In this document: one piece after another, positions 22,983-57,100 of the stretch | Numbering within the stretch: position 1 is the first letter of the stretch | Layout: every line of letters begins with the position of its first letter | DNA from: Mustelus asterias | Taxonomy: Eukaryota | Length of the DNA: 64,000 bases | Assembly: GCF_964213995.1 (NCBI RefSeq) | Contig: NC_135806.1 | Coordinates: 139,748,001-139,812,000, forward strand | Direction of reading: 5' to 3' | Position numbers and translations under genes: made by a program | Notes under the pieces: model-generated | Databases searched by the model: none | Seen by the model: the letters and a program-made list of their open reading frames with translations, nothing else | What the model was told of the DNA's origin: nothing

Positions 22983-23015
22983 TGCGGATCTCTCTGTCGG
23001 CTGTTCCGGTTCATT

Positions 23016-26843: not shown

Positions 26844-27223
26844 AGCTTTCACTTAATGATTGGTCAATGACAGTGGCGGATATTATGAGTGTTGAGGAAG
26901 GGGGATCCGCTGTCCTGCCGTGCACTTTCACCCACCCACACCCTGATCGCACAGTCACCGGCTCTGTGAGATGGTACCACCCCGATTCAAAGGCTTACAA
27001 AGTTACCTTTAAGTGTACATATTCCGGCGGGTCCAGGGTGAAGCATGTGAGAGTGGGAAACAGCGGGATGGTGGGAGTCGATTCAAATTTGTGGGGAACT
27101 TCAGCAACAATGATGTCTCAATAATGATGGAGCGGCTGAGCTGGGTGGAAAGCGGTGAATATCACTGCCAGGTGAAACTCAATGTTGGAACATTTCAAAC
27201 ATAGAAATCAACAATTCTGACAA
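26844..27223 (+). pseudogene. Ig V-set domain exon 1, Siglec-15-like, disabled
   Basis: Acceptor ctctctccag. Reads LSLNDWSMTVADIMSVEEGGSAVLPCTFTHPH..VRWY..VTFKC, frameshift near 27025, then EAC..SRFKFVGNFSNNDVSIMMERL..SGEYHCQVKL..T*. Matches recalled Siglec-15 motifs (WSM, LPCTFTHPH, FRC..C, RF..GN...ND.S..ERL, YFCRV). TAG at 27202-27204. The 3' boundary is uncertain. Confidence 0.85.
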
Positions 27224-36021: not shown

Positions 36022-39000
36022 AACATAGAACATAGAACATAGAAAGCCACAGCACAAACAGGCCCTTCGGCCCACAAGTTGCGCCGATCACATCCCCACC
36101 TCTAGGCCTATCTATAGCCCTCAATCCCATTAAATCCCATGTACTCATCCAGAAGTCTCTTAAAAGACCCCAACGAGTTTGCCTCCACCACCACCGACGT
36201 CAGCCGATTCCACTCACCCACCACCCTCTGAGTGAAAAACTTACCCCTGACATCCCCCCTGTACCTACCCCCCAGCACCTTAAACCTGTGTCCTCTCGTA
36301 GCAACCATTTCAGCCCTTGGAAATAGCCTCTGAGAGTCCACCCTATCCAGACCCCTCAACATCTTGTAAACCTCTATCAGGTCACCTCTCATCCTTCGTC
36401 TCTCCAGGGAGAAGAGACCAAGCTCCCTCAACCTATCCTCATAAGGCATGCCCCCCAATCCAGGCAACATCCTTGTAAATCTCCTCTGCACCCTTTCAAT
36501 GGCTTCAACATCTTTCCTGTAATGAGGTGACCAGAACTGCGCGCAGTACTCCAAGTGGGGTCTAACCAGGGTCCTATAAAGCTGCAGCATTATCTCCCGA
36601 CTCCTAAACTCAATCCCTCGATTAATGAAGGCTAGTACGCCATACGCCTTCTTGACCGCATCCTCCACCTGCGAGGCCGATTTAAGAGTCCTATGGACCC
36701 GGACCCCAAGGTCCTTCTGATCCTCTACACTGCTAAGAATGGTACCCTTCATTTTATACTGCTGCTCCATCCCATTGGATCTGCCAAAATGGACCACTAC
36801 GCATTTATCTGGGTTGAAGTCCATCTACCACTTCTCCGCCCAGTCTTGCATCCTATCTATGTCCCTCTGTAACTTCTGACATCCCTCCAGACAACCCCAC
36901 CAACCTTTGTGTCGTCGGCAAACTTACCAACCCATCCCTCCACTTCCTCATCCAGGTCATTTATGAAAATGACAAACAGCAGGGGTCCCAGAACAGATCC
37001 CTGGGGCACACCACTGGTGACCGACCTCCAATTAGAAAAAGATCCATCTATACACACTCTCTGCCTCCTTTGGGCAAGCCAGTTCTGGATCCACAGGGCA
37101 GCAGCCCCTTGGATCCCATGCCCTCTCACTTTTTCTGGAAGCCTTGCATGGAGGACCTTATCGAACGCCTTGCTAAAATCCATATAAACCACATCTACCG
37201 TTTTCCCTTCGTCAATGTGTTTAGTCACATTTTCGAAGAACTCCACCAGGCTCGTAAGGCACGATCTGCCTTTGACAAAGCCATGCTGAGTATTCTTGAG
37301 CATACTAAACCTCTCTAAATGCTCATAGATCTTATCCCTCAGGATCTTCTCCATCAGCTTACCAACCACTGAGGTTAGACTCACCGGTCGGTAATTTCCT
37401 GGGCTATCCCTATTCCCCTTCTTGAAAATAGTAACCACATCCGCAATCCTCCAATCCTCTGGCACCTCTCCCGTCTCCATCGACGACGCAAGGATCATCG
37501 CCAGAGGCTCTGCAATCTCTTCCCTCGCCTCCCACAGTAACCTGGGGTACATTCCATCCGGACCCGGCGACTTATCTATCTTGATGCCATTCAAAGATTC
37601 CCGCACAACCTCTTTCTTAAAGTCCACATACTCAATCCTTTCAATCCACCGCAAGCTCACAGTACATCCACCCAGGTCCTTCTCCTCTGTGAAAACTGAG
37701 GCAAAATACTCATTAAGCACCTCTGCCATTTCTACTGGTTCCGTACTGATTTTCCCGCCTTCACCTTTTATAGGCCCTATTCCTTCACGTCTCATCCTTT
37801 TACTTTTCACATATTTATAGAATGCCTTGGGGTTTTCCTTAATTCTACTTGCCAAGGCCTTCTCGTGACCCCTTCTGGCTCTCCTAATTTCCTTCTTTAG
37901 TCCCTTCCTACAAGTCATATACTCATCTAGATCCCTATCTTCGCCAAGCTCTCTGAACCTTTTGTACACTTTCCTTTTCTTCTCGACTAGGTCCCGCACA
38001 GCTTTCGTGCACCACGGTTCCTTTAACCTACCAACCCCTCCCTGTCTGCTCGGAACATTGTCCTGTAGAACCCTAGACAGACATTCCTTGAAAAACTGCC
38101 ACCTCTCTTCAGTAGATTTCCCCGAGAATACCTCCTTCCAATTTACTCCTCTAATTTGCTGCCTTATGTCTTCATATTTCCCCTCACTCCATATAAACGC
38201 TTTCCTAGCTTGCCTGATCCTCTCTTTTTCCAATGCAAGCATAAAGGAGATAGAGTTATGATCGCTATCCCCAAGATGCTCTCCCACTGAGAGATCTGAC
38301 ACCTGTCCAGGCTCATTGGTCAGTATCAGATCAAGTACAGCCTCTCCTCTTGTAGGCTTGTCCACGTGCTGTGTCAGGAAACCCTCCTGAACACACCTAA
38401 TGAACTCCTCCCCATCCAATCCCCTTACCCGAGGGATATTCCAATCAATGTTTGGGAAATTAAAGTCTCCCATCACAACAACCCTGCTATTGTTGCAACT
38501 CTCCAGGATCTGTTTCCCTATCTGCTCCTCCACCTCCCTGTCACTATTGGGCGGCCTATAGAAAACTCCCAGCAAAGTGATCGACCCCTTCCCACTCCGA
38601 ACTTCCACCCAGAGCGACTCTGTAGACAATCCCTCCACAGCGTACACCTTCTTTACAGCTGTGACACTATTCCTGATCAGCAGTGCCACTCCACCCCCTC
38701 TCTTGCCTCCCTCCCTGTCCTTCCTGAAACATCTGAATCCCGGCACCCTGGAGTATCTAGTCCTGTTCCTGAGACATCCAAAGAACAAAGAACAAAGAAC
38801 AATACAGCACAGGAACAGGCCCTTCGGCCCTCCAAGCCCGTGCCGCTCCCCGGTCCAGGATTGAATCCTGAATCCAGGATCCCCGCCCAATTTTCCAGCC
38901 TATCTACATCCTAATATCCTATCCACTGAGCTGTCCCTCACAGCTACGATGCTTTGTTCATCACAACTATTAACTCACCCCCACCCCCCCATTCCAGACC

Positions 39001-39324
39001 ATGTGATCTCCAGGGAGAGGCGAAAACCCAGAGTGAAAACCCCAGGGCCAATATGGGGAAAAAAAATCTGGGAAATTCCTCTCCGACCCCCTGTGGCGAT
39101 CAAAACGAGTCCAGGAGATCACACTGGTCCTGATCAGAAAATGCTTCCCAACCCTATTCATTTCCACTTCTGCTTTACGAACACCATCTGAATTCCCTGC
39201 CCCCGAGACAGGTTCCCAACTATCCGCAGTCTCGCTCTGTACTGGCCCCAGCAAGATGATCATAGAATGAAGCCTTGAAACGAGAAACAAAGAACAATTA
39301 GCCCGCGCCGCTCCCTGGTCCAAA

Positions 39325-41706
39325 CTAGACCACTCTTTTGTATCCCTCCATTCCCACTCCGTTCATATAGCTGTCTAGATAAGTCTTAAACGTTCCCAGT
39401 GTGTCCGCCTCCACCACCTTGCCTGGCAACACATTCCAGGCCCCCACGATCCTCTGTGTAAAATATGTCCTTCTGATATCTGTGTTAAACCTCCCCCCCT
39501 TCACCTTGAACCTATGACCCCTCGTGAACGTCACCACCGACCCGGGGAAAAGCTTCCCACCGTTCACCCTATCTATGCCTTTCATAATTTTATACACCTC
39601 TATTAAGTCTCCCCTCATCCTCCGTCTTTCCAAGGAGAACAACCCCAGTTTCCCCAATCTCTCCTCATAACCAAGCCCCTCCATACCAGGCAACATCCTG
39701 GTAAACCTCCTCTGTACTCTCTCCAAAGCCTCCACGTCCTTCTGGTAGTGTGGCGACCAGAACTGGACGCAGTATTCCAAATGCGGCCGAACCAACATTC
39801 TATACATCTGCAACATCAGACCCCAACTTTTATACTCTATGCCCCGTCCTATAAAGGCAAGCATGCCATATGCCTTCTTCACCACCTTCTCCACCTGTGA
39901 CGTCACCTTCAAAGATCTGTGGACTTGCACACCCAGGTCCCTCTGCGTCTCTACACCCTTTATGGTTCTTCCATTTATCGTGTAGCTCCTCCCTACATTA
40001 TTCCCACCAAAATGCATCACTTCGCATTTATCAGGATTGAACTCCATCTGCCATTTCTTTGCCCAAGTTTCCAGCCTATCTATATCCTTCTGTAGCCTCT
40101 GACAATGTTCCTCACTATCTGCAAGTCCTGCCAGTTTTGTGTCGTCCGCAAACTTACTGATCACCCCAGTTACTCCTTCTTCCAGATCATTTATATAAAT
40201 CACAAACAGCAGAGGTCCCAATACAGAGCCCTGCGGAACACCACTAGTCACAGGCCTCCAGCCGGAAAAAGACCCTTCCACTACCACCCTCTGTCTTCTA
40301 TGACCAAGCCAGTTCTCCACCCATCTAGCCACCTCCCCCTTTATCCCATGGGATCCAACCTTTTTCACTAGCCTACCATGAGGGACTTTGTCAAACGCTT
40401 TACTAAAGTCCATATAGACAACATCCACGGCCCTTCCTTCGTCAATCATTCTGGTCACTTCTTCAAAAAACACCACCAGGTTAGTGAGGCATGACCTCCC
40501 TCTCACAAAACCATGCTGACTATCGTTAATGAGTTTATTCCTTTCTAAATGCGCATACATCCTATCTCTAAGAATCTTCTCCAACAACTTCCCCACCACG
40601 GACGTCAAGCTCACCGGCCTATAATTACCCGGGTTATCTTTCCTACCCTTCTTAAATAACGGGACCACATTAGCTATCCTCCAATCCTCTGGGACCTCAC
40701 CTGCGTCCAGTGACGAGACAAAGATTTGCGTCAGAGGCCCAACGATTTCACCTCTCGTCTCCCTGAGCAGCCTTGGATAGATTCCATCAGGCTCTGGGGA
40801 TTTGTCAGTCTTTATATTCTCTAACAAACCTAACACTTCCTCCTTTGTAATGGAGATTTTCTCCAACGGTTCAACACTCCCCTCCGAGACACTCCCAGTC
40901 AACACATCCCTCTCCTTTGTGAATACCGACGCAAAGTATTCATTTAGGATCTCCCCTACTTCTTTGGGCTCCAAGCATAAGTCCCCACTTTTGTCCCTGA
41001 GAGGTCCGATTTTTTCCCTAACAACCCTTTTGTTCCTAACGTATGAATAAAATGCCTTGGGATTCTCCTTAATCCTGTCTGCCAAGAACATTTCGTGACC
41101 CCTTTTTGCTCTTCTAATTCCCCGTTTGAGTACTTTCCTACTTTCTTTGTACTCCTCCAGAACTCCCTCCGTTTTTAGCTGCTTGGACCTAACATACGCC
41201 TCTCTTTTCTTTTTGACCAGTCCCTCAATTTCCCTGGTTATCCACGGTTCTCTAATCCTACCCTTCCTATCCTTCTTTTTTACAGGCACAGGCTTGTCCT
41301 GTAGCCCTAACAACTGTTCCTTAAAAGACTGCCACATACCAGATGTGGATTTACCCTCAAACAGCCTCTCCCAATCAAGAGCTGCCAATTTCTGCCTGAT
41401 CCCACTAAAGTTAGCCTTCCCCCAATCCAACACCTTACCCTTGGGACACCACTCATCCTTTTCCATCACTATCCTAAAGCTAACAGAATTGTGGTCACTA
41501 TTTGCCACATGTTCCCCTACCAAAACTTTGAAGACCTGACCGGGCTCATTCCCCAGTACCAGGTCCAGTATAGCCCCCTCCCTAGTCGGGCTGTCTACAT
41601 ATTGTTCCAACGAACCCTCCTGTACACATTTTACAAATTCCTCCCCATCCAGAGTCCCTGCCCTCAGCGATTTCCAGTCTATACCAGGGAAATTGAAGTC
41701 TCCCAC
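39325..41706 (-). CDS. CR1 ORF2 (C-terminal EN part + RT), open for 793 codons
   Basis: [43 protein letters not shown]. Confidence 0.9.
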   Translation of the reverse strand: MGDFNFPGIDWKSLRAGTLDGEEFVKCVQEGSLEQYVDSPTREGAILDLVLGNEPGQVFKVLVGEHVANSDHNSVSFRIVMEKDEWCPKGKVLDWGKANFSGIRQKLAALDWERLFEGKSTSGMWQSFKEQLLGLQDKPVPVKKKDRKGRIREPWITREIEGLVKKKREAYVRSKQLKTEGVLEEYKESRKVLKRGIRRAKRGHEMFLADRIKENPKAFYSYVRNKRVVREKIGPLRDKSGDLCLEPKEVGEILNEYFASVFTKERDVLTGSVSEGSVEPLEKISITKEEVLGLLENIKTDKSPEPDGIYPRLLRETRGEIVGPLTQIFVSSLDAGEVPEDWRIANVVPLFKKGRKDNPGNYRPVSLTSVVGKLLEKILRDRMYAHLERNKLINDSQHGFVRGRSCLTNLVVFFEEVTRMIDEGRAVDVVYMDFSKAFDKVPHGRLVKKVGSHGIKGEVARWVENWLGHRRQRVVVEGSFSGWRPVTSGVPQGSVLGPLLFVIYINDLEEGVTGVISKFADDTKLAGLADSEEHCQRLQKDIDRLETWAKKWQMEFNPDKCEVMHFGGNNVGRSYTINGRTIKGVETQRDLGVQVHRSLKVTSQVEKVVKKAYGMLAFIGRGIEYKSWGLMLQMYRMLVRPHLEYCVQFWSPHYQKDVEALERVQRRFTRMLPGMEGLGYEERLGKLGLFSLERRRMRGDLIEVYKIMKGIDRVNGGKLFPGSVVTFTRGHRFKVKGGRFNTDIRRTYFTQRIVGAWNVLPGKVVEADTLGTFKTYLDSYMNGVGMEGYKRVV

Positions 41707-41734
41707 TACAACAACCCTATTTTCCCTGCACCTA

Positions 41735-42936
41735 TGTGGAGGGATGGGTTGGTAAGTTTGCTGACGACACCAAGGTAGGTGGTGTTGTGGATAGTTTGGA
41801 GAGATGTCAGAAGTTGCAGCGAGACATAGATAGAATGCAAGACTGGGCGGAGAAGTGGCAGATGGACTTCAACCCGGATAAGTGTGTGGTGATCCATTTT
41901 GGCAGATCCAATGGGATGAAGCAGCAGTATAATATGAAGGGTACCATTCTTAGCAGTGTAGAGGATCAGAAGGACCTTGGGGTCCGGGTCCATAGGACTC
42001 TTAAATTGGCCTCGCAGGTGGAGGATGCGGTCAAGAAGGCGTACGGCGTACTGGCCTTCATTAATCGAGGGATTGAGTTTAGGAGTCGGGAGATAATGCT
42101 GCAGCTTTATAGGACCCTGGTTAGACCCCACTTGGAGTACTGCGCGCAGTTCTGGTCACCTCATTACAGGAAAGATGTTGAAGCCATTGAAAGGGTGCAG
42201 AGGAGATTTACAAGGATGTTGCCTGGATTGGGGGGCATGCCTTATGAGGATAGGTTGAGGGAGCTTGGTCTCTTCTCCCTGGAGAGACGAAGGATGAGAG
42301 GTGACCTGATAGAGGTTTACAAGATGTTGAGAGGTCTGGATAGGGTAGACTCTCAGAGGCTATTTCCAAGGGCTGAAATGGTTGCTACGAGAGGACACAG
42401 GTTTAAGGTGCTGGGGGGTAGGTACAGAGGAGATGTCAGGGGTAAGTTTTTCACTCAGAGGGTGGTGGGTGAGTGGAATCGGCTGACGTCGGTGGTGGTG
42501 GAGGCAAACTCGTTGGGGACTTTAGGAGAAATCCAGCACGAGGGGGCATGGCTTTAAATTGAGGGGGGGTAGTTATAGAACCGATGTCAGGGGTAGGTTC
42601 TTTACCCAGAGGGTGGTGAGGGATTGGAATGCCCTGCCAGCATCAGTAGTAAATGCGCCTAGTTTGGGGGCGTTTAAGAGATCCGTAGATAGGTTCATGG
42701 ACGAAAAGAAATTGGTTTAGGTTGGAGGGTCACAGTTTGTTTTTTTTTTTAACTGGTCGGTGCAACATCGTGGGCCGAAGGGCCTGTTCTGCGCTGTAAT
42801 GTTCTATGTTCTATGTTCTGGATGAGTACATGGGATTTAATGGGATTGAGGGCTATAGATAGGCCTAGAGGTGGGGATGTGATCGGCGCAACTTGTGGGC
42901 CGAAGGGCCTGTTTGTGCTGTGGCTTTCTATGTTCT
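41735..42936 (+). mobile_element. Inverted 5'-truncated CR1 (subfamily of B) inside C, itself containing another CR1 3' end (42521-42817)
   Basis: ORF 41736..42557 is nearly identical to 36108..36824. ctat duplicated at the junctions. Confidence 0.88.
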
Positions 42937-43451
42937 ATCCAGCATCTCCTGACATATCCATTCTTCCACTTCCCTTGGGCTGTTGGGGGGCCTGTAGTAC
43001 ACCCCCAACATAGTGACCGCGCCTTTCCTGTTTCTAAGCTCCACCCAGAATGACTCGTTACACGACCCCTCTGAATTGTCCTCCCTCTGCACCGCTGTAA
43101 TATGCTCTCCAACTAATACCGCTACTCCCCCACCTCTTTTGGCCCCTCCTCTGTCTCGCCTAAAACACTTGTACCCTGGAATATTCAGCTGCCAGTCCTG
43201 TCCCTCTTTCAACCAAGTCTCTGTCACCGCAACCACATCCAAATTCCTCGTGCGCATTAAGGCCCCAAGTTCGTCTGTCTTACCTGCTACGCTCCTTGCA
43301 TTGAAGTATAAGCACTCCAGACCTCCAGGCCCAGTGAGGTCGTCCTCCCCCAGAGTGTTCTTCTTCTTTGCCAGCCTTGTCCCAGCCCCAAGCTCGTCCC
43401 CAGCCTCCACACTTGTAGACCTAATATTTTGATCCCCACCCCCCTGCCATA

Positions 43452-44471
43452 CTAGTTTAAACCCCCCCGAACTGCACTAGCAAAGCTCCCAGCCAGGATA
43501 TTTGTGCCCTTCCAACTTAGTTGTGACCCCTCCCTCTTGTACAGGTGCCATCCTCTCCTGAAAACTTCCCATTGATCTATGAAAATGAAGCCCTCCCTCC
43601 TGGACCAGTCCTTTAGCCAGGCATTCATTTGTACCAACTCCCTATTCTTAGCCTCACTGGCACAAGGCATTGGGAGCAGCCCAGAGATGGCCACCCTAGT
43701 GACCCTACTTTTTAACCTATTTCCCAACTCCCTGAATTGCTCTCTTAGGATCCCCCTACTCTTCCTATCTACGTCATTTCCACCAATGTGTATAATGACA
43801 TCCGTTTCTTTATCTTCCCCTTGTAATATGCCTCCTATCCGCTCGGAGACATCCGTGACCCCAGCACCAGGTAGGCAGACTACCATCCTGGAGTCCCGTT
43901 CGCACCCACAGAATCGCCTGTCTGTGCCTCTAACTGATGCATCCCCCACCACTATCGCTCTCCTAACCCCTCTCTTCCCTTTCCGGGCCACAGAGCCTGA
44001 CTGTGTGCCAGTGACCTGGTCCCTGTGTCTTACCACTGGAGAGGCACACTCCTCCACACTATCCAAAACAATATACCTGTTTTGGAGTGGGACAACCACA
44101 GGTGACCCCTCTTCTAACTGTTCACTCCCCTCCCCTCTCACACCTGTCACCAAGCCCTTCCTTTTTTGAGAAACCACCACTGGAGTCCTCCCTTGTACTT
44201 TACCCTTCTGTCCTTTACTCCTCCTAACTGTGACCCACGTGTCTTCCTCCCGATGCCCCGGTGTAACTAGTTGCCTATAACTCCTGTCAATTTTTCTCCC
44301 ATTTTCCCTGACTAGCCTAAGGTCAGCGATCTGCAGCTCCAGTTCCATGACACGGTCCCTCAAGAGCTGCAGTTCCACGCACCTGGCACATATGTGAACC
44401 TCTGGGAAGCTAGGTGTTTGCAGGAACTCCCACATCCCACATCGGAAGCACTGAACTGGCCGATCACTCAT
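43452..44471 (-). CDS. CR1 ORF1 (Zn-finger/leucine zipper + SGNH esterase-like domain)
   Basis: CFRC..CARC, LRDRVMELELQIADL, IVVGDAS, VCLPGAGV, IHIGGND. Confidence 0.88.
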   Translation of the reverse strand: MSDRPVQCFRCGMWEFLQTPSFPEVHICARCVELQLLRDRVMELELQIADLRLVRENGRKIDRSYRQLVTPGHREEDTWVTVRRSKGQKGKVQGRTPVVVSQKRKGLVTGVRGEGSEQLEEGSPVVVPLQNRYIVLDSVEECASPVVRHRDQVTGTQSGSVARKGKRGVRRAIVVGDASVRGTDRRFCGCERDSRMVVCLPGAGVTDVSERIGGILQGEDKETDVIIHIGGNDVDRKSRGILREQFRELGNRLKSRVTRVAISGLLPMPCASEAKNRELVQMNAWLKDWSRREGFIFIDQWEVFRRGWHLYKREGSQLSWKGTNILAGSFASAVRGGLN

Positions 44472-45945
44472 ACCTGCCCTTATCCTTTATAGGGTTGGAT
44501 AAAAAAAGTCTCCGTAATGGCCACCACATCACACTTCCAGGCATCGATCCACGCTCTGAGCTCATCCCCTTTATTCACTATACTCCTGGCATTAAAGTAA
44601 ACACATCTCAATCCTTTGGTCTGAGCTCTCCCCTTCTCTATCCCCCGTCCATCTTCCCTCTTGCACCGTCTATAACCCTTCTCTGTTTGCGAGCTAACTT
44701 CCTCGCTCCCAGTCACCTCCTCTCGATCCCCTCCCCCCAACCTATCTAGTTTAAACTCTCCCCAGTAGCCTTAGCCAACCTTCCCGGGGTAGAGTAATTG
44801 TAGATTGGGTGGTACGAGGTGAGAATTTGATGTTTGTAATATTGTAAAATGCTCGGGGGGAAAGCATTGCATGGTCACGTTAAAAGATGGTGCTTTTTCT
44901 GTGCTTAGAGATTTAAAATGCAAGTACATGGACAGCCCAAACTGAAATGTTAGAATCCAAAGACCAAACAGCAGTTTTTGCCAAGTCCAAGCTTTTGAAT
45001 TTAGCCAATCAATTTGAATCAAGTATTTAGGTACCAAAAACCTATTAAATTTAAATCTGATAGTTTGACAACCTGGAACCAATCCTATTGTGGGGGATAT
45101 TGATCTGTCATCACAGGTATAAAAGAAGGGGGCAGTGGGACAAAAAGGGAGAGCAACTGCCACCTGCTGGAGCTCACAGCTCTCAGCTCTCTCTCTTTCT
45201 CTCGCTGACTATCATAGCTTCATCTATGTCTGAGAAAAAGCGCCATCTAGATAGCAAAGATACCAAAGAAGAAAGAAGTTCCAGACAGAAGAATCAACAG
45301 AGAAACCCCTGAATATTCCAGAGGACACAAAACCTGGTTGTAATTTAGAGAGTGACTAAATTCTACTTTTGTTAATGAGTGGGACTTGTATTTATTTGAA
45401 CAGCATACCATTAGAATCTTGTTTCTTACGGGAATAGTTAATAGTTAGGAGGAATTTATTCGATGTGTGAAGAGTTTAGTTAATTTGATTTGATTTAATT
45501 TCATTTGATTTGATTTGTCACATGTATTAACATACAGTGAAAAGTATTGTTTCTTGCCGCTATACAGGCAAAGCATACCGTCCATAGAGAAGGAAACGAG
45601 AGAGCGCAGAATGTAGTGTTACAGTCATAGCTAGGATGTAGAGAAAGATCAACTTAATGCAAGGGAAGTCCATTCAAAAGTCTGACAGCAGCAGGGAAGA
45701 AGCTGTTCTTGAGTCAGTTGGTACGTGACCTCAGACTTTTGCATCTTTTTCCCAACGGAAGAAGGTGGAAGAGAGAATGTCCGGGGTGCGTGGGGTCCTT
45801 AATTATGCTGACTGCTTTGCCGAAGCAGTGGGACAGAGTCAATGGATGGAAGGCTGGTTTGCGTGATGGATTAAGCTACATTCACGACCATTTGTAGTTC
45901 CTTGCGGTCTTGGGCAGAGCAGGAGCCATATCAAGCTGTGATACA

Positions 45946-47744
45946 GTGAATGTTGATAGAATGAATGTTGGACCCTTGGAAGATGAGAGGGGGGATTTAA
46001 TAATGGAAAACGAGGAAATGGCTGAGACTTTAAATAAGTTCTTTGTGTCGGTCTTCACGGTGGAAGACACAAATAGTTTGCCGAATATTAGAGATCGAGA
46101 GTTGGTGGGAGGGGAGGTCCTTAATACAATTACTGTTACTAAGGAGGTGATGCTTGGTAGACTAATAGGACCGAAGGTAGACAAGTCCCCGGGCCCGGAT
46201 GGAATGCATCCCAGGGTACTGAAAGAAATGGCTGAGGTAATAGCAGATGCGTTAGTAGTAATTTATCAAAATTCGCTGGACTCTGGGGTAGTGCCGGCTG
46301 ACTGGAAAACAGCTACTGTTACGCCGCTGTTTAAAAAAGGAAGTAGACAAAAAGCGGGTAACTACAGGCCGGTTAGCTTAACGTCCGTAGTTGGGAAATA
46401 ACAGAGCACCTGAATAAGAATGGTTCGATCAAGCAGACGCAGCATGGATTCATGAAGGGAAAGTCGTGTTTGACGAATCTACTGGACATTTATGAAGATG
46501 TCACTAGTGCGGTTGACAGAGGGGAACCGGTGGGTGTGGTGTTTTTAGATTTCCAGAAGGCGTTCGATAAGGTGCCTCACAAAAGGTTGCTGCAGAAGAT
46601 TGGGGTACACGGAGTTGGGGGTAAGGTGTTGGCGTGGATTGGGGATTGGCTATATAACAGGAAGCAGAGAGTTGGGATAAATGGGTGCTTTTCTGGTTGG
46701 CAGTTGGTGACCAGTGGCGTGCCGCAAGGATCGGTGCTGGGGCCTCAATTGTTTACCATTTACATAGATGATCTGGAGGAGGGGACTGAATCTAGGGTAT
46801 TCAAGTTTGCTGCTGACACGAAGGTGAGTGGGAAAGCGAATTGCGTGGAGGACGCGGAAAGTCTGCAGAGAGATTTGGATAGGCTGAGCGAGTGGGCGAG
46901 GATCTGGCAGATGGAATATAACGTTAGCAAATGTGAGGTTATCCACTTTGGAAGAAATAATAGTAAATTGGAATATTATTTAAATGGAGAAAAATTACAT
47001 CGTGCGACTGTGCAGAGGGACCTGGGGGTCCTTGTGCACGAATCGCAAAAACTCAGTCTGCAGGTGCAGCAGGTGATCAAGAAGGCGAATGGAATGTTGG
47101 CCTTTATTGCGAGGGGGATAGAATATAAAAGCAGGGAGGTCTTGCTGCAACTGTACAAGGCACTGGTGAGGCCGCAACTGGAGTACTGTGTGCAGTTTTG
47201 GTCCCCTTATTTGCGAAAGGATATATTGGCCTTGGAGGGAGTGCAGAGAAGGTTCACCAGGTTGATACCGGAGATGAGGGGTGTGGCTTATGAGGAGAGA
47301 TTAAACAGATTGGGTCTGTACTCGTTGGAGTTTAGAAGGATGAGGGGTGATCTTATAGAGACCTATAAGATAATGAAGGGGCTGGATAGGGGAGAGGTGG
47401 AGAGATTCTTTCCACTTAGAAGGGAAACCAGAACTAGAGGGCACAGCCTCAAAATAAGGGGGGGGCCGGTTCAGAACAGAGTTGAGGGGGAACTTCTTCT
47501 CTCAGAGGATAGTGAATCTCTGGAATTCTCTGCCCATTGAAGTGGTGGAGGCTTCCTCGTTGAATATGTTTAAATCACGGGTAGATAGTTTTCTGATCGA
47601 TAAGGGAATTAGCGGTTATGGGGAGCAGGCGGGTAAGTGGAACTGATTCGCTTCAGATCAGCCATGATCTTGTTGAATGGCGGGGCAGGCTCGAAGGGCC
47701 AGATGGCCTACTCCTGCTCCTATTTCTTATGTTCTTATGTCCTT
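45946..47744 (+). mobile_element. 5'-truncated CR1 nested in Rex1
   Basis: ORFs 45910..46401 and 46452..47540. TSD ataca. Confidence 0.92.
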
Positions 47745-49834
47745 ATACAACCAGAAAGAATGCTTTCTATGGTGCATCTGTAAAAGTTGGTGAGAGTCAT
47801 AGCTGACATGCCAAATTTCCTTAGTCTTCTGAGAACTAGAGGCGTTGGTGGACTTTCTTAACTATAGTGTCTGCATTGGTGGACCAGGACAGGTTGTTGG
47901 TCATCTGGACACCTAAAAACTTAAAGCTCTTGACCCTTTTTACTTCGTTCCCGTTGATGTAGACAGGGGCATGTTCTCCTTTACGCTTCCTGAAGTCGAT
48001 GACAATCTCCTTCGTTTTGTTGATATTGAGGGAGAGATTATTGTTGCCGCACCAGTTCACCAGATTCTCTATCTCATTCCTGTACTCTGTCTCTCATCAT
48101 TGTTTGAGATCTGACCCACTACGGTGGTGTCATCAGCAAATTTGAATTGGAGGGGAATTTGGCCGCACAGTCATAAGTGTATAAGGAGTATAGTAGGGGG
48201 CTGAGAACGCAGCCTTGTGGGGCACCGGTGTTGTGGATGATCGTGGAGGAGGTGTTGTTGCCTATCCTTACTGATTGTGGTCTGTGGGTTAGGAAGTTCA
48301 GGATCCAGTCACAGAGGGAGATGCCGAGGCCCAAGCCACGGAGTTTGGAGATGAGTTTCGTGGGGATAATGGTGTTGAAGGCTGAGTTGTAGTCAATAAA
48401 TAGGAGTCTGACATAGGTGTCCTTGTTATCTAGGTATTCCAGGGGTGAGTGCAGGGCCAGGGAAATGGCGTCTGCTGTGGACCTGTTGCAGCAATAGACA
48501 AACTGTAGTGGATCCAGGTAGTCCGGGAGGCTGGAATTGATTCGTGCCATGACTAACCTTTCGAAGCACTTCATAATGATGGATGTCAGAGCCAACGGCC
48601 GATAGTCTTCTTGGTTTTTCCTAGGTACCGGGATGACAGTCGTCTTCTTGAAGCAGATAGGGACCTCAGATTGTTGTAAAGAGAGGTTGAAGATGTCTGC
48701 GATTACCCCCTCCAGCTGATCCGCGTAGGATCTGAGTGCTCGTCCGGGTACCCCATCCGGGCCAGTTGCTTTCCGTGGGTTGACCTTCAAGAAAGTTGCT
48801 CTAACGTCTGCAATGGTGACCTCAGATACAGGTGCTTCCAGGGTGGAGGACATGCTCTCGCTTGACTTCTTGCTCAAAACGGGCATAGAATGCATTGAGT
48901 TCGTCAGGAAGGTTGGAGCCATCGATTTTACATGCCTTCATCTTGTAGCCTGTAATGTCTTGCAGACCTTGCCATAGACAGCGGGGGTCAGTGTGGCTAG
49001 CCTGGGACTCTAGCTTGGTCCAGTACTGTCTTTTGGCATCTTTGATGGATCTCCTTAGATCGTATCTGGCTTTCTTATATAGGTCAGGGTCGCCTGACTT
49101 GAACGCCTCAGACCTGGACTTCAGCAAGCAGTGGATATCCCTGTTCATCCATAGTTTCCGGTTGAGGAACATGCGGATTTGCTTCTTTGGCACACAGTCT
49201 TCTACACACTTACTAATGAAGTCAGTCACTGTAGTGGGGTACTCATTCAGGCTGGTCGCATAGTTTTTAAATACTGACCAGTCCACTGTCTCCAAGCAGC
49301 CCCGTAGGCGATCATCTGATTCCTCAGAACAACATTGCACTACCTTCTTTGATGGATTCTCCCGCTTCAGTTTTTGCTTGTAAGCTGAGAGCAGGAGCAC
49401 AGCTTTGTGGTCTGATTTGGCAAAGTGTGGGCGGGTGATAGAGCGGTAGGCTTGTTTGATGTTTTTTATAGCAGTGGTCTAAGATGTTTGGGCCTCTGGT
49501 GGGACAGGAGACGTGTTGGTGGTAACTTGGTAGTACGCTCTTGAGCTTGGCCTGATTGAAGTCCCCAGCCATGTGAACAAGGCCTATTCGTAGTGGTGTA
49601 TATTTCGTCCAGCATGATCTTCACGTCCACATGGGGTGGGATGTAAACTGCCATCAGGATAACGGAGGTGAACTCCCGCGGAAGGTAATAGGGGCGGCAT
49701 TTTAGCGTCAGGTATTCTAGGTCTGGGGAGCAGACAGTTATGATGTGGAGATGCTGGTGTTGGACTGGGGTAAACACAGTAAGAAGTCTCACAACACCAG
49801 ATTAAAGTCCAACAGGTTTATTTGTTAGCACAAG

Positions 49835-49871
49835 CCACTAGCTTTCGGAGCACTGCCCCTTCATCAGGTGA
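49835..49871 (-). ncRNA. Minimal hammerhead ribozyme
   Basis: tcac CTGATGA a ggggc agt gctcc GAAA gc TA gtgg. The partner at 51960-51996 has a mutated core (CTGGTGA). Confidence 0.7.
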
Positions 49872-50035
49872 GTGGGAGTTCTGTTCACAAACAGGGCATA
49901 TACAGACACAAACTCAATTTACAAAATAATCGTTGGAATGCGCATCTTTACAGGTAATTAAGTCTTAAAGGTACAGACAATGTGAGTGGAGAGAGGGTTA
50001 AGCACAGGTTAAAGAGATGTGTATTGTCTCCAGCC

Positions 50036-51760
50036 TCCAGGTTTCAGCCTCATTGTTCCACAGGAGCAGGCTAAGTGTAAGGGAGCTTGTTTGTGCATTA
50101 TATTTATTTATTTGTCAGTTAAATTTGTGAAAAAAATCGGAGGTTTTTTTTCCAAAACAGGAAGTAGGCCCAGCAGCAGCCCGGGAAGGTTTTGGAGGGT
50201 TTAAAAGTAGGCCGCACTTTTGAGCGGGCAGTGTCGTTAGCAGGCAGTGGAGTGAGCAGGGGGCAGAGTGAGTGCTGAAGGGCTTTGGCTCAAAACGGGC
50301 TTCGGCGAGAACAGGCAGAGGCGAGAGTAGGTTTTTCTTTTTCAGAAAGTTTGAAAAGAAATCCGGGAAATTATAGGCCAGTAAGTTTGACGTCGGTGGT
50401 GGGCAATTTATTGGAAGGTGTGATAAGGGATAGGACCTACAAATATTTGGATAGACAGGGACTTAGGGAGAGTCAACATGGCTTTGTGCATGATAGGTCA
50501 TGTTTGACCAATCTATTCGAGTTTTTCGAGGAGGTTACCAGGAAAGTGGATGAAGGGAAGGCGGTGGATGTTGTCTACCTGGATTTCAGCAAGGCCTTTG
50601 ACAAGGTCCCTCATGGGAGGTTAGTTAGGAAGGTTCAGTCGCTAGGTATACATGGGGAGGTAGTAAATTGGATTAGACACTGGCTCAATGGAAGAAGCCA
50701 GAGAGTGGTTGTGGAGGATTGCTTCTCTGAGTGGAGGCCTGTGACTAGTGGTGTGCCGCAGAGATCGGTGTTGGGTCCATTGTTGTTTGTCATCTATATC
50801 AATGATCTGGATGATAATGTGGTAAATTGGATCAGCACGTTTGCTGATGATACAAAGATTGGAGGTGTAGTGGACAGTGAGGAACGTTTTCAAAGCTTGC
50901 AGAGGGATTTGGGCCAACTAGAAAAATGGGCTGAAAAATGGGAAATGGAATTTAACGCAGACAAGTGTGAGATATTGCACATTGGAAGGACAAACCAAAG
51001 TAGAACGTACAGGGTAAATGGTAGGACTCTGAAGAGTGCAGTTGAACAGAGGGATCTGGGAATACAGGTACAGAATTCCCTAAAAGTGACGTCACAAGTG
51101 GATAGGGTCGGAAAGAGTGCCTTTGGTACATTGGCCTTTATAAATCGGAGTATCGAGTATAAAAGTTGGAGTGTTATGGTAAGGTTATATAAGGCATTGG
51201 TGAGGCCGAATTTGGAGTATTGTGTACAGTTTTGGTCACCTAGTTACAGGAAGGATGTAAATAAGGTTGAAAGAGTGCAGAGAAGGTTCACAAGGATGTT
51301 GCCGGGACTTGAGAAGCTGAGTTACAGAGAGAGATTGAATAGGTTGGGACTTTATTCCCTGAAGCATAGAAGATTGAGGGGAGATTTGATAGAGGTGTAT
51401 AAGATTTTGAAGGGTATAGATAGAGTGAATGCAAGCAGGCTTTTTCCGCTGAGGCTAGGGGAGAAAAAAACCAGAGGGCATGGGTTAAGGGTGAAAGGAG
51501 AAAAGTTTAAAGGGAATATTAGCGGGGACTTCTTCACGCAGAGAGTGGTGGGAGTGTGGAATGAGCTGCCGGATAAAGTGGTCAATGCGGGGTCACTTTT
51601 AACATTTAAGAAAAACTTGGACGGGTTCATGGATGAGAGGGGTGTGGAGGGATATGGTCCAAGTGCAGGTCAGTGGGACTAGGCAAAAAATGGTTCGGCA
51701 CAGACAAGAAGGGCCAAAAGGCCTGTTTCTGAGCTGTAATTTTCTATGGTTCTATGGTTC
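50036..51760 (+). mobile_element. CR1 derivative: ~310 bp non-coding leader joined directly to RT and C-terminus
   Basis: ORF 50285..51682 shows homology from [12 protein letters not shown] onward, with (ttctatgg)n tail. Confidence 0.85.
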
Positions 51761-53005
51761 TCGGACTGGCTGGAGACAATACACATCTCTTGTCCTGGCT
51801 GGAGACAATACACATCTCTTTAACCTGTGCTTAACCCTCTCTCCACTCACATTGTCTGTGCCTTTAAGACTTGATGACCTGTAAAGATGCGCATTCCAAC
51901 CATTATCCTGTAAATTGAGTTTGTGTCTTTATATGCCCGTTTATGAACAGAACTCCCACTCACCTGGTGAAAGGGCAGCGCTCCGAAAGCTAGTGGCTTG
52001 TGCGAGCAGAAAGTTGCCAGTGTTGCTACATCTAGGCATCACGAGGTGTTGATTAGGAAGCAGATCTCTCCTTCCTTAGCCTTGCCTGAGGCCGCTGTGC
52101 AGTCCATTCAATGGACTGAGAAGCCCTTTGGTTGTAGGGCACTGTCCGGTGAAGCAGGGGTGAGCCACGTCTCCGTGAAACAGAGTGCACAGCAGTCCCT
52201 CAGTTCTCTTTGGAAAGCGAGTCTGGATTTAAGTTCGTCTGGCTTGTTTTCCAGAGATTGGACATTTGCCAGCAGTAAGGTGGGGAGGGGGGGCCTTGGG
52301 ACCGCGTTGTTTCACTCTCACCTGCAGCCTGAACGTTTTCCACACTTCCTGGAGTCTCTGCTTCTTTTCGAGCCTGGGGGACGGTGAGAGTGGTTTGCGG
52401 TGTTAAGGGTATGGTTGTGTCCAATGAGGTTCTTCACTCTGGTCGGCATGTGGATGGAGGATTTGTTGCCTTGCTAGCAGTTCCTGCGTCGGTAGATTGG
52501 TCTGCGCGGTCGGGCGTTCCGGGTTGCTGTCAGACTGCGTTTTGGCTTTGCCGGTTGTTGGTTCACTATTAGTTAGATAAATAAATTGTTACGTGTTAAT
52601 TTTAGAGAGAGAGTGTCAGGGATTTATTTTTCTATTTAACAACTAGAAGGTGCTGAAGAGCAGGTCACACCACTTCACTCGCACTGTTTACAGATTATAG
52701 GGCAAGGTACTCCTCTTTGGTTGTGTCGGGTAGTTTTCAGAGGCCGGGATCCACCTTGCTTTATAACAATCACACTTTGTGCATTTACATACATATATTC
52801 CAAATGAATCTGGGGAAGGGTATGCAGATAGTTCGAGTCATGTTGAAATCAAAAAGGAGGAGGTATTGGGGTTCTTGAGAAACATTAAGATAGACAAGTC
52901 CCCAGGGCCTGATGGGATATATCCCAGAATACTGAGAGAGGCAAGGGAGGAAATTGCTGGGGCCTTCAGAGAAATCTTTATATCCTCACTGGCCACAGGG
53001 GAGGT

Positions 53006-53107
53006 ACACACAGTAAGAAGTCTCACAACAGGTTGGACTTTAACCTGGCGTTGTGAGACTTCTTACTGTGTTTACCCCAGTCCAACGCCGGCACCTCCAC
53101 ATCATGA
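53006..53107. mobile_element. Penelope mini-hairpin (~100 bp)
   Basis: cacagtaagaagtctcacaac / gttgtgagacttcttactgtg plus tail. TSD ccacaggggaggt / ctacaggggagat. Confidence 0.82.
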
Positions 53108-53426
53108 CTACAGGGGAGATCCCAGAGGATTGGAGACTAGCCAATGTTGTTCCTTTGTTTAATAAGGGTAGCAAGAATAATTCAGGTAATTACAGGCCGG
53201 TGAGCCTTACGTCAGTGGTAAGGAAATTATTGGAGAGGATTCTTTGAGACAGGATTTATTCCCGCTTGGAAATAAGTGGATGTATTAGTGAGAGGCAAGA
53301 TGGTTTTGTGAAGGAGAGCTCGTGTCTCACTAACATAAGAACATAAGAAATAGGAGCAGGAGTAGGCCATCTAGCCCCTCGAGCCTGCCCCGCCATTCAA
53401 TAAGATCATGGCTGATCTGACGTGGA

Positions 53427-56400
53427 TCAGTACCACTTACCCGCCTGATCCCCATAACCCTTAATTCCCTTACCGATCAGGAATCCATCCATCCGCGCTT
53501 TAAACATATTCAGCGAGGTAGCCTCCACCACCTCAGTGGGCAGAGAATTCCAGAGATTCACCACCCTCTGGGAGAAGAAGTTCCTCCTCAACTCTGTCTT
53601 AAACCGACCCCCCTTTATTTTGAGGCTGTGTCCTCTAGTTTTAACTTCCTTACTAAGTGGAAAGAATCTCTCCGCCTCCACCCTATCCAGCCCCCGCATT
53701 ATCTTATAAGTCTCCATAAGATCCCCCCTCATCCTTCTAAACTCCAACGAGTACAAACCCAATCTCCTCAGCCTCTCCTCATAATCCAAACCCCTCATCT
53801 CAGGTATCAACCTGGTGAACCTTCTCTGCACTCCCTCCAATGCCAATATATCCTTCCTCATATAAGGGGACCAATACTGCACACAGTATTCCAGCTGCGG
53901 CCTCACCAATGCCCTGTACAGGTGCATCAAGACATCCCTGCTTTTATATTCTATCCCCTTCGCAATATAGGCCAACATCCCATTTGCCTTCTTGATCACC
54001 TGTTGTACCTGCAGACTGGGCTTTTGCGTCTCATGCACAAGGACCCCCAGGTCCCTTTGCACGGTAGCATGTTTTAATTTGTTTCCATTGAGATAGTAAT
54101 CCCATTTGTTATTATTTCCTCCAAAGTGTATAACCTCGCATTTATCAATGTTATACTCCATTTGCCATATCCTCGCCCACTCACTCAGCCTGTCCAAATC
54201 TCTCTGCAGATCTTCTCCGTCCTCCACACGATTCACTTTTCCACTTATCTTTGTGTCGTCTGCAAACTTCGTTACCCTACACTCCGTCCCCTCCTCCAGA
54301 TCATCTATATAAATGGTAAATAGTTGCGGCCCGAGTACCGATCCCTGCGGCACGCCACTAGTTACCTTCCTCCAACCGGAAAAACACCCATTTATTCCGA
54401 CTCTTTGCTTCCTGTCAGATAGCCAGTCCCCAATCCACTTTAACACACTACCCCCAACTCCGTGTGCCCTAATCTTCTTCAGTAGCCTTTTATGGGGCAC
54501 CTTATCAAACGCCTTTTGGAAATCCAAAAACACCGCATCCACCGGTTCTCCTCCATCAACCGCCCTAGTCACATCTTCATAAAAATCCAACATGTTCGTC
54601 AAGCACGACTTTCCCCTCATGAATCCATGCTGCGTCTGATTGATCGAACCATTTCTATCCAGATGCCCTGCTATCTCCTCTTTAATAATGGATTCCAGCA
54701 TTTTCCCTACTACAGACGTTAAGCTGACCGGCCTATAGTTACCCGCCTTTTGTCTCCTTCCTTTTTTAAACAGCGGCGTAACATTAGCCGTTTTCCAATC
54801 AACCGGCACTACCCCAGAATGCAACGAGTTTTGATAAATAATCACTAACGCATCCACTATTACCTCTGACATTTCTTTCAATACCCTGGGATGCATTCCA
54901 TCCGGACCCGGGGACTTGTCCACCTTCAGTCCCATTAGTCTACCCAGCACTGCCTCTCTGGTAACATTAATTGTATTAAGTATTTCTCCTGCTGCCAACC
55001 CTCTATCGTTAATATTTGGCAAACTATTTGTGTCCTCCACCGTGAAGACCGACACAAAAAACTTATTTAAAGACTCAGCCATATCCTCATTTCCCACTAT
55101 TAACTCCCCCCTCTCGTCCTCCAAGGGTCCAACATTCACTCTAGCCACTCTATTCCTTTTTATATATTTATAAAAACTTTTACTATCATTTTTTATATTA
55201 ATTGCTAGCCTAGCTTCATAGTCTATCCTTCCTTTCTTTATCGCTTTCTTAGTCTCTCTTTGTTGTTTCTTCAATTTTTCCCAATCACTTGTTTCTCCAC
55301 TATTTTTGGCCACTCTGTACGCAGCTGTTTTTATTTTAATACTCTCCTTTATTTCCTTCGTTATCCACGGCTGGTTCTCCCTTTTCTTACAATCCTTGTT
55401 TTTTGCTGGAATATATTTTTGCTGAGAACTGAAAAGGATCTCCTTAAAAATCCTCCACTGTTCCTCAGCTATCCTACCTGCCAGCCTGCTCTCCCAGTCT
55501 CCCTTAGCCAATTCATCCCTCATCCTATCATATTTCCCTCTGTTCAAACAGAGGACACTGGTTTGGGACCAAACTTTCTCCTCTTCCATCTGAATCAGAA
55601 ATTCAACCATATTGTGGTCACTAGACCCAAGAGGGTCCTTCACAATAAGATCCTTAATTCTACCTACCTCGTTACACAATACCAGATCCAAAATAGCTCG
55701 TTCCCTCGTCGGTTCCGTAACATGCTGTTCAAGGAAACTATCCCGACAGCATTCTAAGAACTCTTCCTCCATTCCACCCTTACCGACTTGAGTCTGCCAG
55801 TCAATGTGCATGTTGAAGTCCCCCATGATTATTGCCGTTCCGTTTTTACACGCATCCCTTATCTGCTTGTTTATAGCCCTCCCTACCTCAACATTATTAT
55901 TTGGGGGCCTATATACCACACCTACTAGTGTCTTTCTCCCTCTACTATTCCTCATCTCTACCCATAATGATTCCACGTTTTGTTCCTCAGAGCCTATGTC
56001 ATCCCTCAGTACTACCCTGATATTATCTCTTATTAATAGCGCGACCCCACCACCTTTTCCTTCCTGTCTATTCTTCCTAAACGCCTGATACCCCTGGATA
56101 TTCATCTCCCAGTCCTGGTCACCTTTCAGCCACGTTTCTGTAATGGCCACTAGATCGTACCCACTCGTGCTGATTTGCACCATCAACTCATTTACCTTGT
56201 TCCGAATGCTTCGTGCATTCAGGCAAAGTGTCCTTATTCCAGCTTTTATCTGGACCCGCTTTGATGAGTCGCGAACACCGTCTCCCTCTACTCCCTTATC
56301 TAAATTACCGCCTTCATTCACTTGCACCCTCTCCTCTACCATTAATTTTGTAATTCCCCTTACCCCTGCATCCTCCACCCCATCAATTAGTTCCTTGATC

Positions 56401-56432
56401 CTAGTCAACTCTTCTAGCTCCCCTCCCCCCAA
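53427..56432 (-). CDS. Intact CR1 ORF2 (APE endonuclease + reverse transcriptase), 1001 codons
   Basis: [56 protein letters not shown]. No stops. Confidence 0.96.
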   Translation of the reverse strand: MGGGELEELTRIKELIDGVEDAGVRGITKLMVEERVQVNEGGNLDKGVEGDGVRDSSKRVQIKAGIRTLCLNARSIRNKVNELMVQISTSGYDLVAITETWLKGDQDWEMNIQGYQAFRKNRQEGKGGGVALLIRDNIRVVLRDDIGSEEQNVESLWVEMRNSRGRKTLVGVVYRPPNNNVEVGRAINKQIRDACKNGTAIIMGDFNMHIDWQTQVGKGGMEEEFLECCRDSFLEQHVTEPTRERAILDLVLCNEVGRIKDLIVKDPLGSSDHNMVEFLIQMEEEKVWSQTSVLCLNRGKYDRMRDELAKGDWESRLAGRIAEEQWRIFKEILFSSQQKYIPAKNKDCKKRENQPWITKEIKESIKIKTAAYRVAKNSGETSDWEKLKKQQRETKKAIKKGRIDYEARLAINIKNDSKSFYKYIKRNRVARVNVGPLEDERGELIVGNEDMAESLNKFFVSVFTVEDTNSLPNINDRGLAAGEILNTINVTREAVLGRLMGLKVDKSPGPDGMHPRVLKEMSEVIVDALVIIYQNSLHSGVVPVDWKTANVTPLFKKGRRQKAGNYRPVSLTSVVGKMLESIIKEEIAGHLDRNGSINQTQHGFMRGKSCLTNMLDFYEDVTRAVDGGEPVDAVFLDFQKAFDKVPHKRLLKKIRAHGVGGSVLKWIGDWLSDRKQRVGINGCFSGWRKVTSGVPQGSVLGPQLFTIYIDDLEEGTECRVTKFADDTKISGKVNRVEDGEDLQRDLDRLSEWARIWQMEYNIDKCEVIHFGGNNNKWDYYLNGNKLKHATVQRDLGVLVHETQKPSLQVQQVIKKANGMLAYIAKGIEYKSRDVLMHLYRALVRPQLEYCVQYWSPYMRKDILALEGVQRRFTRLIPEMRGLDYEERLRRLGLYSLEFRRMRGDLMETYKIMRGLDRVEAERFFPLSKEVKTRGHSLKIKGGRFKTELRRNFFSQRVVNLWNSLPTEVVEATSLNMFKARMDGFLIGKGIKGYGDQAGKWY

Positions 56433-56437
56433 CCTAT

Positions 56438-57100
56438 CTAGTTTAAATTCTCCCCAGTAACCTTAGCCAACCTACCGGCCAGGATATTGGTCCCCGTGTG
56501 ATTCAAGTTCCACCCGTTTTTTGTATACAGATCACCCCTGCCCCTAAAGAGGTCCCAATGGTCCAGGAACCTGAATCCCTGCCCCCTGCACCAGTCCCTC
56601 AGCCACACATTCATCTTCCACCTCACTCCATTCCTGCCCTCACCTTCCCGTGGCACAGGTAGTAATCCTGAGATTACTACCTTTGCTTTCCTCTTTCTCA
56701 GCTGTCTCCCTAATTCCCTGTACTCCCTTTTCATGACCCCTTCTCCCTTCCTACCCACATCAGCGGTACCAATATGTACCGCTACCTCAGGCTCCTCTCC
56801 CTCCCACCTCAGGATTTCCGGGACGCGACTAGCGACATCCTGGATCCCGGCCCCAGGGAGGCAGACCACCATGCGAGAATCCCGCCTACCTCCGCAGAAA
56901 CGCCTGTCTGTCCCCTTCACCATCGAGTCCCCGATTAATACCGCCTTCCTCCTCTTTTCCTTAGCCCTCTGAGTTACAGGGCTGGACTCCACTGCGGAGA
57001 CACGGCCACTGCTGCTTCCCCCAGGCGGGCTGTCCCCCCCAGCAGTACTCAAGCAGGAGTACTTGTTGTGCAGGGGCAAATCCACTGGGGTGCTCTCAAC
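56438..57100 (-). CDS. CR1 ORF1 C-terminal SGNH esterase-like part
   Basis: LIGDSMV, VCLPGAGI, VHIGTAD, FLDHW; ends ENLN*. Confidence 0.87.
   Translation of the reverse strand, partial: VESTPVDLPLHNKYSCLSTAGGDSPPGGSSSGRVSAVESSPVTQRAKEKRRKAVLIGDSMVKGTDRRFCGGRRDSRMVVCLPGAGIQDVASRVPEILRWEGEEPEVAVHIGTADVGRKGEGVMKREYRELGRQLRKRKAKVVISGLLPVPREGEGRNGVRWKMNVWLRDWCRGQGFRFLDHWDLFRGRGDLYTKNGWNLNHTGTNILAGRLAKVTGENLN

Follow-up and report, generated by a model that had tools for sequence, protein, structure and literature searches.

A conserved U_UUA_AAC heptamer at the ORF1/ORF2 junction of esterase-type CR1 LINEs probably directs programmed -1 frameshifting

How long interspersed nuclear elements (LINEs) translate their second open reading frame (ORF2) is an open question, which is usually answered by reinitiation from the examples of L1 and SART1. 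A 2016 review of recoding describes LINE ORF2 as the product of unusual initiation (PMC5009743); SART1 couples ORF2 to ORF1 via UAAUG, and L1 is an example of AUG-independent initiation (PMC5009743, PMC3708506). Statements on articles cited by PMC number refer to the portions of them that were searched. For -1 ribosomal frameshifting, the same review counts U_UUA_AAC, G_GGA_AAC, and A_AAA_AAC among the heptamers most prone to shift, and for equine arteritis virus it gives G_UU(A) (PMC5009743). In the nsp2 frameshift of PRRSV (the virus causing porcine reproductive and respiratory syndrome), a C-rich motif lies 10 nucleotides (nt) downstream and is bound by nsp1beta/PCBP (PMC7618472). According to a figure legend in another review, the Dictyostelium elements TRE5-A and TRE3-A, non-LTR retrotransposons (LTR, long terminal repeat) of the apurinic/apyrimidinic endonuclease (APE) type, need a -1 frameshift for ORF2 (PMC5911963), and this statement provides a precedent for a frameshifting non-LTR element. 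PMC5633606 gave no match for frameshift. CR1 is a dominant LINE of sharks, reptiles, and birds. In this study, we analyzed the ORF1/ORF2 junction of CR1 LINEs with an esterase-type ORF1 in 64,000 nt of Mustelus asterias DNA (GCF_964213995.1, NC_135806.1:139,748,001-139,812,000, forward strand), hereafter called the window.

A frameshift route for CR1 was not found in PMC4120745 or PMC13343379, as far as these were searched. The main text of PMC13343379 held no match for frameshift, overlap, slippery, or translation, and its supplement held none for frameshift. In 300,000 of the 449,034 characters of PMC5009743, CR1 had no whole-word match. No report of CR1 frameshifting was found in the literature searched; the 1997 chicken and turtle CR1 papers and the Repbase entries may mention the overlap. 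Here we examined how the heptamer is swapped in distant relatives, an unstructured motif whose spacer is fixed, a stop upstream, and pairing with the tail, for which the result was negative. We conclude that the ORF2 product of esterase-type CR1 LINEs is probably synthesized as a fusion to ORF1 through programmed -1 frameshifting, and to this reading of the sequences we assign a probability of about 80%.

An initial annotation of the window had reported that ORF1 ends in T TTA AAC TAG at 43452-43461, 44746-44755, and 56438-56447 of the minus strand, and all three junctions were confirmed. We refer to these copies as elements A, B, and C, respectively, and their coordinates below are all on the minus strand. 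The heptamer U_UUA_AAC, in ORF1 phase, occupies 43455-43461 in element A, 44749-44755 in element B, and 56441-56447 in element C, and the ORF1 stops are at 43452-43454, 44746-44748, and 56438-56440. Heptamer plus TAG as a 10-mer was matched three times in the whole window against 0.15 expected from shuffles. As had been claimed, each copy has an open -1 frame that extends from its heptamer to within the endonuclease. Two copies, those at 43461 and 44755, have no in-frame ATG before the YFNARS motif, which fits the annotation's "B and C" when its elements are taken in minus-strand order. The junctions had been attributed to three CR1 subfamilies. Each carries the heptamer, but the three are not independent because the 44755 and 56447 copies belong to sister groups. 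The ORF1 end of the 44755 copy is known by homology only because this copy is 5'-truncated 31 nt before the heptamer.

To avoid motif selection, loci across the genome were gathered by ORF1 protein searches and coordinate fetches, and ORF1 ends were placed using queries without the last four residues. Removal of 19 duplicates and 2 false matches from 196 matches left 175 copies, 9 of them from a motif search and 2 of them window copies. The estimate free of motif selection rests on 166 sampled copies, which are not a random sample because the searches return the best-scoring copies. The exact heptamer was present in 162 of the 175 junctions, and in 153 of 166 after removal of the nine motif-selected loci. 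Among the non-exact sites, eight were U_UUA_AAU and five had other single changes. The codon after the heptamer was TAG in 97 copies, TAA in 71, a sense codon in 7, and TGA in none. A motif-based pattern gave 10,337 genome matches against one for the reversed control, a count that speaks for abundance only because the pattern itself demands the heptamer. When evenly spaced genome stretches were sampled, only two junctions were found in 200 kb.

A second candidate slippery site, G_GGU_UUA, overlaps the first one codon upstream in 127 of the 175 copies and in most subfamilies (43458-43464 in the window). This heptamer is the site of the yeast L-A virus.

Synonymous variation was then compared over the last 57 codons, gap-free, of ORF1 in 11 subfamilies, two of which were represented by motif-selected copies only. 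Synonymous variation of the terminal Leu and Asn codons, named in the initial annotation as a finding that would count against a shift, was not seen: Leu was TTA and Asn was AAC in 11 of 11 subfamilies. At other codons of the same ORF1 tail, TTA was used for 4 of 70 Leu and AAC for 16 of 38 Asn, and all 10 upstream degenerate columns with an invariant amino acid varied synonymously. The codon before Leu-Asn encodes five different amino acids (G, D, S, N, or T) and ends in T throughout the 11 subfamilies. The third base was invariant in 3/3 of the last codons compared to 2/44 of those between -56 and -10 (Fisher p 6e-4, with no correction for kinship or site choice). These results indicate that the junction site is conserved beyond amino-acid constraint.

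We also examined the junction in distant relatives. A protein search of 1.8 billion representatives gave 1154 matches, of which 150 were listed, 94 of them with a placeable end. Among the matches listed, 63 of 94 ORF1 proteins end in LN (48), GN (13), or KN (2), the dipeptides encoded by X_XXA_AAC. Judged from the proteins alone, sea turtle, tegu, and swallow ORF1 proteins among them end in RALN, and the group ending in KN would predict an A_AAA_AAC site. Distant esterase ORF1 proteins (P0054, P0079, P0131, P0160, and others) were seen to end in QGN, SGN, AGN, or SKN. Distant proteins, the majority with GN, KN, or LN at the end, were aligned and used to scan metagenome contigs; this yielded six loci with 31-49% identity to the query, one of which runs off its contig. 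In the five contigs with complete ORF1 ends, the site was G_GGA_AAC (two), U_UUA_AAC (two), or G_UUA_AAC (one), followed in every case by UAR and a G-rich motif. Pfam placed the endonuclease in the -1 frame in three of the four metagenome contigs scanned; the fourth ends after 99 codons. The site thus varies within the slippery class, which favors -1 frameshifting. A swap between known slippery heptamers with the phase kept is predicted by frameshifting and not by its rivals, and we regard this as the strongest evidence at the sequence level. The fusion by -1 frameshifting that the initial annotation had suggested gains support from relatives that appear to have switched to other slippery heptamers.

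The 10-mer was also seen by eye at the apparent junction of 17 of 20 matches among the CR1-group consensus sequences in the supplement of PMC13343379, with labels of crocodilians, frog, coelacanth, bowfin, a teleost, and several cartilaginous fish; these matches give no fraction because the search used the motif and covered the first 400 letters per entry. In the viral contigs scanned, no relatives were found. Prokaryote genome contigs gave two loci, one of which runs off the contig end and the other of which was false.

A shift at the heptamer should be followed by an open -1 frame. The distance from the heptamer to the Asn motif of the endonuclease had modal values of 144, 150, 153, 159, 162, 165, 189, 204, and 228 nt. 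These modal linker lengths were multiples of three in 13 of 14 groups, with an old decayed group as the exception; the variable ORF2 frame that had been raised as a counterargument was not observed, the modal frame being -1 in the same proportion of groups (13/14). The -1 frame was stop-free in 11 of 14 groups, and the other two frames there held 1-12 stops. In 8 of these 11 groups the first Met lies beyond the endonuclease Asn motif, where the Pfam domain begins. The Asn of this motif is presumably catalytic. In the window, the ORF2 frame of element A (42931-43461) comprises an AUG-free linker and then the endonuclease, and that of element C (53427-56447) has 1006 open codons from the heptamer, with endonuclease and reverse transcriptase and the first Met at codon 35. 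The endonuclease domain PF03372 was detected in the -1 frame of both copies. When linkers were compared in two independent subfamily pairs, 25 of their 51 differences were at third codon positions of the -1 frame, a modest sign that the linker is translated. In its layout, its conservation at the nucleotide level, its variation among slippery heptamers, and the open -1 linker, often without an AUG, that follows it, the junction is a real feature under selection.

Alternatively, ribosomes could stop at the UAR of ORF1 and restart nearby on ORF2, either at a UAAUG, like SART1, or by the AUG-free route proposed for L1, and the conserved letters would then position or hold the terminating ribosome. 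We consider this improbable, even though reinitiation is the described route for SART1 and the favored one for L1 (PMC5009743, PMC3708506). A stop that adjoins the heptamer and is never UGA in 175 copies would suit reinitiation, as would the in-frame AUGs of some groups. The codon overlapping the stop is divided: a UAAUG overlap of the SART1 type is in the ORF2 frame in 1 of 11 subfamilies and in none of the three window copies, AUA or AUU stands there in two more subfamilies, and GAA, GAT, GTT, or GTA is found in 7 of the 11, with no shared near-cognate start. Moreover, reinitiation explains neither why the register is fixed at -1 nor why, in ORF1 phase, U_UUA_AAC, G_UUA_AAC, and G_GGA_AAC replace one another.

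Conservation was not limited to the heptamer. A -1-frame stop lies 15 nt upstream of it in 11 of 11 subfamily majorities, in 132 of 175 copies, and in all three window copies (43477-43479 in element A, 44771-44773 in element B, and 56463-56465 in element C). No other upstream position carries a -1-frame stop in more than 27% of copies. This stop, whose position is conserved, sits inside a TT(T/G)GCTA(A/G) block and confines any shift to a 25-nt interval. By eye, the corresponding stop in the consensuses of PMC13343379 is TGA in a crocodilian one, and two more have TAG following a Val or Thr codon. The upstream stop may guard against upstream slips.

On the downstream side, the G-rich tract described in the initial annotation is real and lies 10 nt away, but it is a motif of the G5-N2-G3 type and not a pure run. 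In 13 of 14 shark groups it starts 11 nt past the heptamer, from which 10 nt of spacer separate it. It occupies 43435-43444 in element A, 44729-44738 in element B, and 56421-56430 in element C. In the distant contigs it starts 8-13 nt past the heptamer (spacer 7-12 nt) and encodes different residues. The suggestion that a G-rich structure acts as the stimulator was not supported. No conserved fold was found, and a two-tier quadruplex pattern was present in only 10 of 14 shark groups (absent from four) and in three of five metagenome loci. Folding programs, although they leave pseudoknots out of their model, detected no stable pseudoknot or stem-loop 5-9 nt downstream, nor a stable first stem. 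The search for a long-range partner of the G motif in 41 long copies gave no shared position, and recurrent matches lay upstream in ORF1. Pairing of the 3' tail with the region behind the site fell under the 10% level of G-matched windows in 0 of 16 copies, and a subfamily's own tail was the best one in two of six subfamilies. A spacer of 10 nt is closer to that of the C-rich, protein-bound motif in PRRSV than to the 5-9 nt that usually precede an RNA structure (PMC7618472), which favors a stimulator that works by protein or ribosome contact. Our candidate, which has roughly an even chance of being correct, is a stop-assisted contact of a protein or the ribosome with the G motif.

Conserved letters that reach past the heptamer, into the 5' TT(T/G)GCTA(A/G) block and the 3' G motif, could also mark a cis element with another role, such as an internal promoter, an RNA packaging or protein-binding site, or a splice signal, with ORF2 made from a separate or processed RNA. 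This is very improbable, as the splice-acceptor AG is absent in the TAA subfamilies (71 of 175 copies), the variation obeys the rules of slippery sites and keeps to codon phase, and the linker is already open at the heptamer. Scarcely credible is the last alternative, that protein constraint only is at work, ORF1p needing its terminal Asn, ORF2p starting from downstream AUGs or scattered near-cognates, and identity reflecting shared descent: 68 of 94 distant ORF1 proteins among the matches listed do end in Asn and the subfamilies are related, but synonymous positions of the same tail vary (10/10 columns) whereas TTA, AAC, and the preceding T do not, and an AUG start would remove the first endonuclease motif in eight groups.

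Several observations nevertheless weigh against -1 frameshifting. The subfamilies compared are related, and 2 of the 11 depend on motif-selected copies. Only 128 of 160 copies are in frame, and we read the remainder as decay. Six of the 14 shark groups have an in-frame AUG ahead of the endonuclease, as do all four metagenome contigs that reach it. Two of the five metagenome contigs, the U_UUA_AAC pair, are closely related to each other, and in one of the pair ORF1 meets a premature stop five codons ahead of the site. Among the matches listed, 31 of 94 distant ORF1 proteins have other ends than those encoded by X_XXA_AAC. No local RNA structure beyond shuffles was found in 30 local folds (z -2.0 to +2.2), and no fold was found in the alignment (consensus -0.49 kcal/mol). 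In addition, PMC3708506 argues for ORF1 functions separate from ORF2p. In the old subfamily 3 (L061-L063, L066, L077, L088), the heptamer is accompanied by a UAAUG whose start overlaps the stop and lies in the ORF2 frame; only 1 of 11 copies of the subfamily with this overlap is still in frame.

If frameshifting takes place as we propose, tRNA-Leu and tRNA-Asn would re-pair from UUA/AAC to UUU/AAA. The majority of ribosomes would terminate at the UAR and release ORF1p, and a minority would read on (…Leu-Asn-Leu…) through the variable linker of 45-75 residues into the endonuclease. The weakest step is the pause, to which we give about even odds: slow termination at the adjacent stop would combine with protein or ribosomal contact on the unstructured G motif, rather than with a pseudoknot. 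A broader proposal is tentative, and we doubt that it will hold in full. Esterase-type CR1s from sharks to birds, together with distant relatives that probably come from invertebrate hosts, might share an ancient and distinct -1 frameshift, composed of a slippery heptamer, a UAR stop that must adjoin it, a -1-frame stop that stands guard upstream, and a G-rich motif that has no structure and is read by a protein acting in trans. Such a frameshift would yield a retrovirus-like, Gag-Pol-like fusion that tethers reverse transcriptase to the esterase particle.

The elements themselves were examined by Pfam and by protein searches. Element A (subfamily 2) has a complete esterase-type ORF1 at 43452-44471 (PF13472, E 4e-08). 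Its ORF2 is interrupted near 42935 by a nested CR1 fragment (41736-42938), continues from 41735, and ends near 38778. Element B (group 10c) is 5'-truncated, begins 31 nt before its heptamer (44506-44786), and is interrupted by the inserted element A, with the remainder of B at 36024-38781. Nested CR1 copies thus extend over 36024-44786, where B contains A, and A contains a 3' fragment of another subfamily. Element C (group 10b), also 5'-truncated, retains the 3' part of ORF1 (56438-57051), and the element end is near 53332. The esterase domain PF13472 (SGNH/GDSL) was found in elements A and C, and ORF2 of element C contains PF03372, PF14529, and PF00078, corresponding to an APE endonuclease and a reverse transcriptase. 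The 3' ends of the elements are short tandem repeats without poly(A). Their relatives are proteins from shark, ray, and skate, which suggests that the elements are CR1 LINEs of cartilaginous fish. Their provisional assignment to CR1 is based on domains, tail, and by-eye likeness to CR1-labelled consensus junctions. An Atlas search gave the esterase assignment again and nothing further. A PDB search gave weak matches only (E about 0.7) to L1 endonuclease, and no residues were mapped on them. In subfamily 2 the element end is about 3470 nt past the heptamer compared to about 3000 nt in most others (38778 to about 39320 in the window; L226, L227), which makes its 3' untranslated region about 450 nt longer.

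Two other features of the window were noted by eye. At 20988-25526 there are two long, near-identical open reading frames in inverted orientation that bear reverse transcriptase and a GIY-YIG-like end and look Penelope-like. On the plus strand, a frame at 26732-27124 resembles an immunoglobulin V-set exon of a host gene.

If our conclusion is correct, the CR1 ORF2 protein is a fusion with ORF1p, and ORF2 annotations that start at the first Met lose part of the endonuclease. Host frameshift inhibitors could then act on CR1 elements. In addition, a -1 site that is conserved but lacks an RNA fold would give researchers a new natural stimulator to work on.

Finally, we compared the CR1 junction with known systems. 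The elements share an esterase ORF1, an APE and reverse transcriptase ORF2, a short-repeat tail without poly(A), and a very high copy number in sharks with the canonical vertebrate CR1 (ORF1 type IV, CR1 subgroup 7; PMC4120745, PMC13343379). In SART1, L1, and zebrafish ZfL2-1, ORF2 translation is coupled to ORF1 translation, as we propose for CR1. For ZfL2-1, which has an esterase ORF1, suppression of the ORF1 stop has reportedly been proposed. SART1 and L1 yield free ORF2p, unlike the fusion proposed for CR1. TRE5-A and TRE3-A differ from CR1 in clade and host, and no shift site or assay was seen in the part of PMC5911963 searched. Like PRRSV nsp2 (PMC7618472), CR1 carries a short, single-stranded motif behind a spacer of 10 nt (in 13 of 14 shark groups), but the CR1 motif, a putative protein-binding site, is G-rich where that of PRRSV is C-rich, and its spacer is 7-12 nt in distant relatives. 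Compared to viral -1 sites, such as U_UUA_AAC of coronaviruses, G_UUA_AAC of equine arteritis virus, and retroviral gag-pol (PMC5009743, PMC7618472), CR1 differs in having an adjacent stop and an unstructured G-rich 3' motif, with no pseudoknot or stem-loop found 5-9 nt downstream. CR1 and these viruses have in common the same heptamers in the same phase, placed where a first protein that is abundant adjoins a polymerase that is rare.

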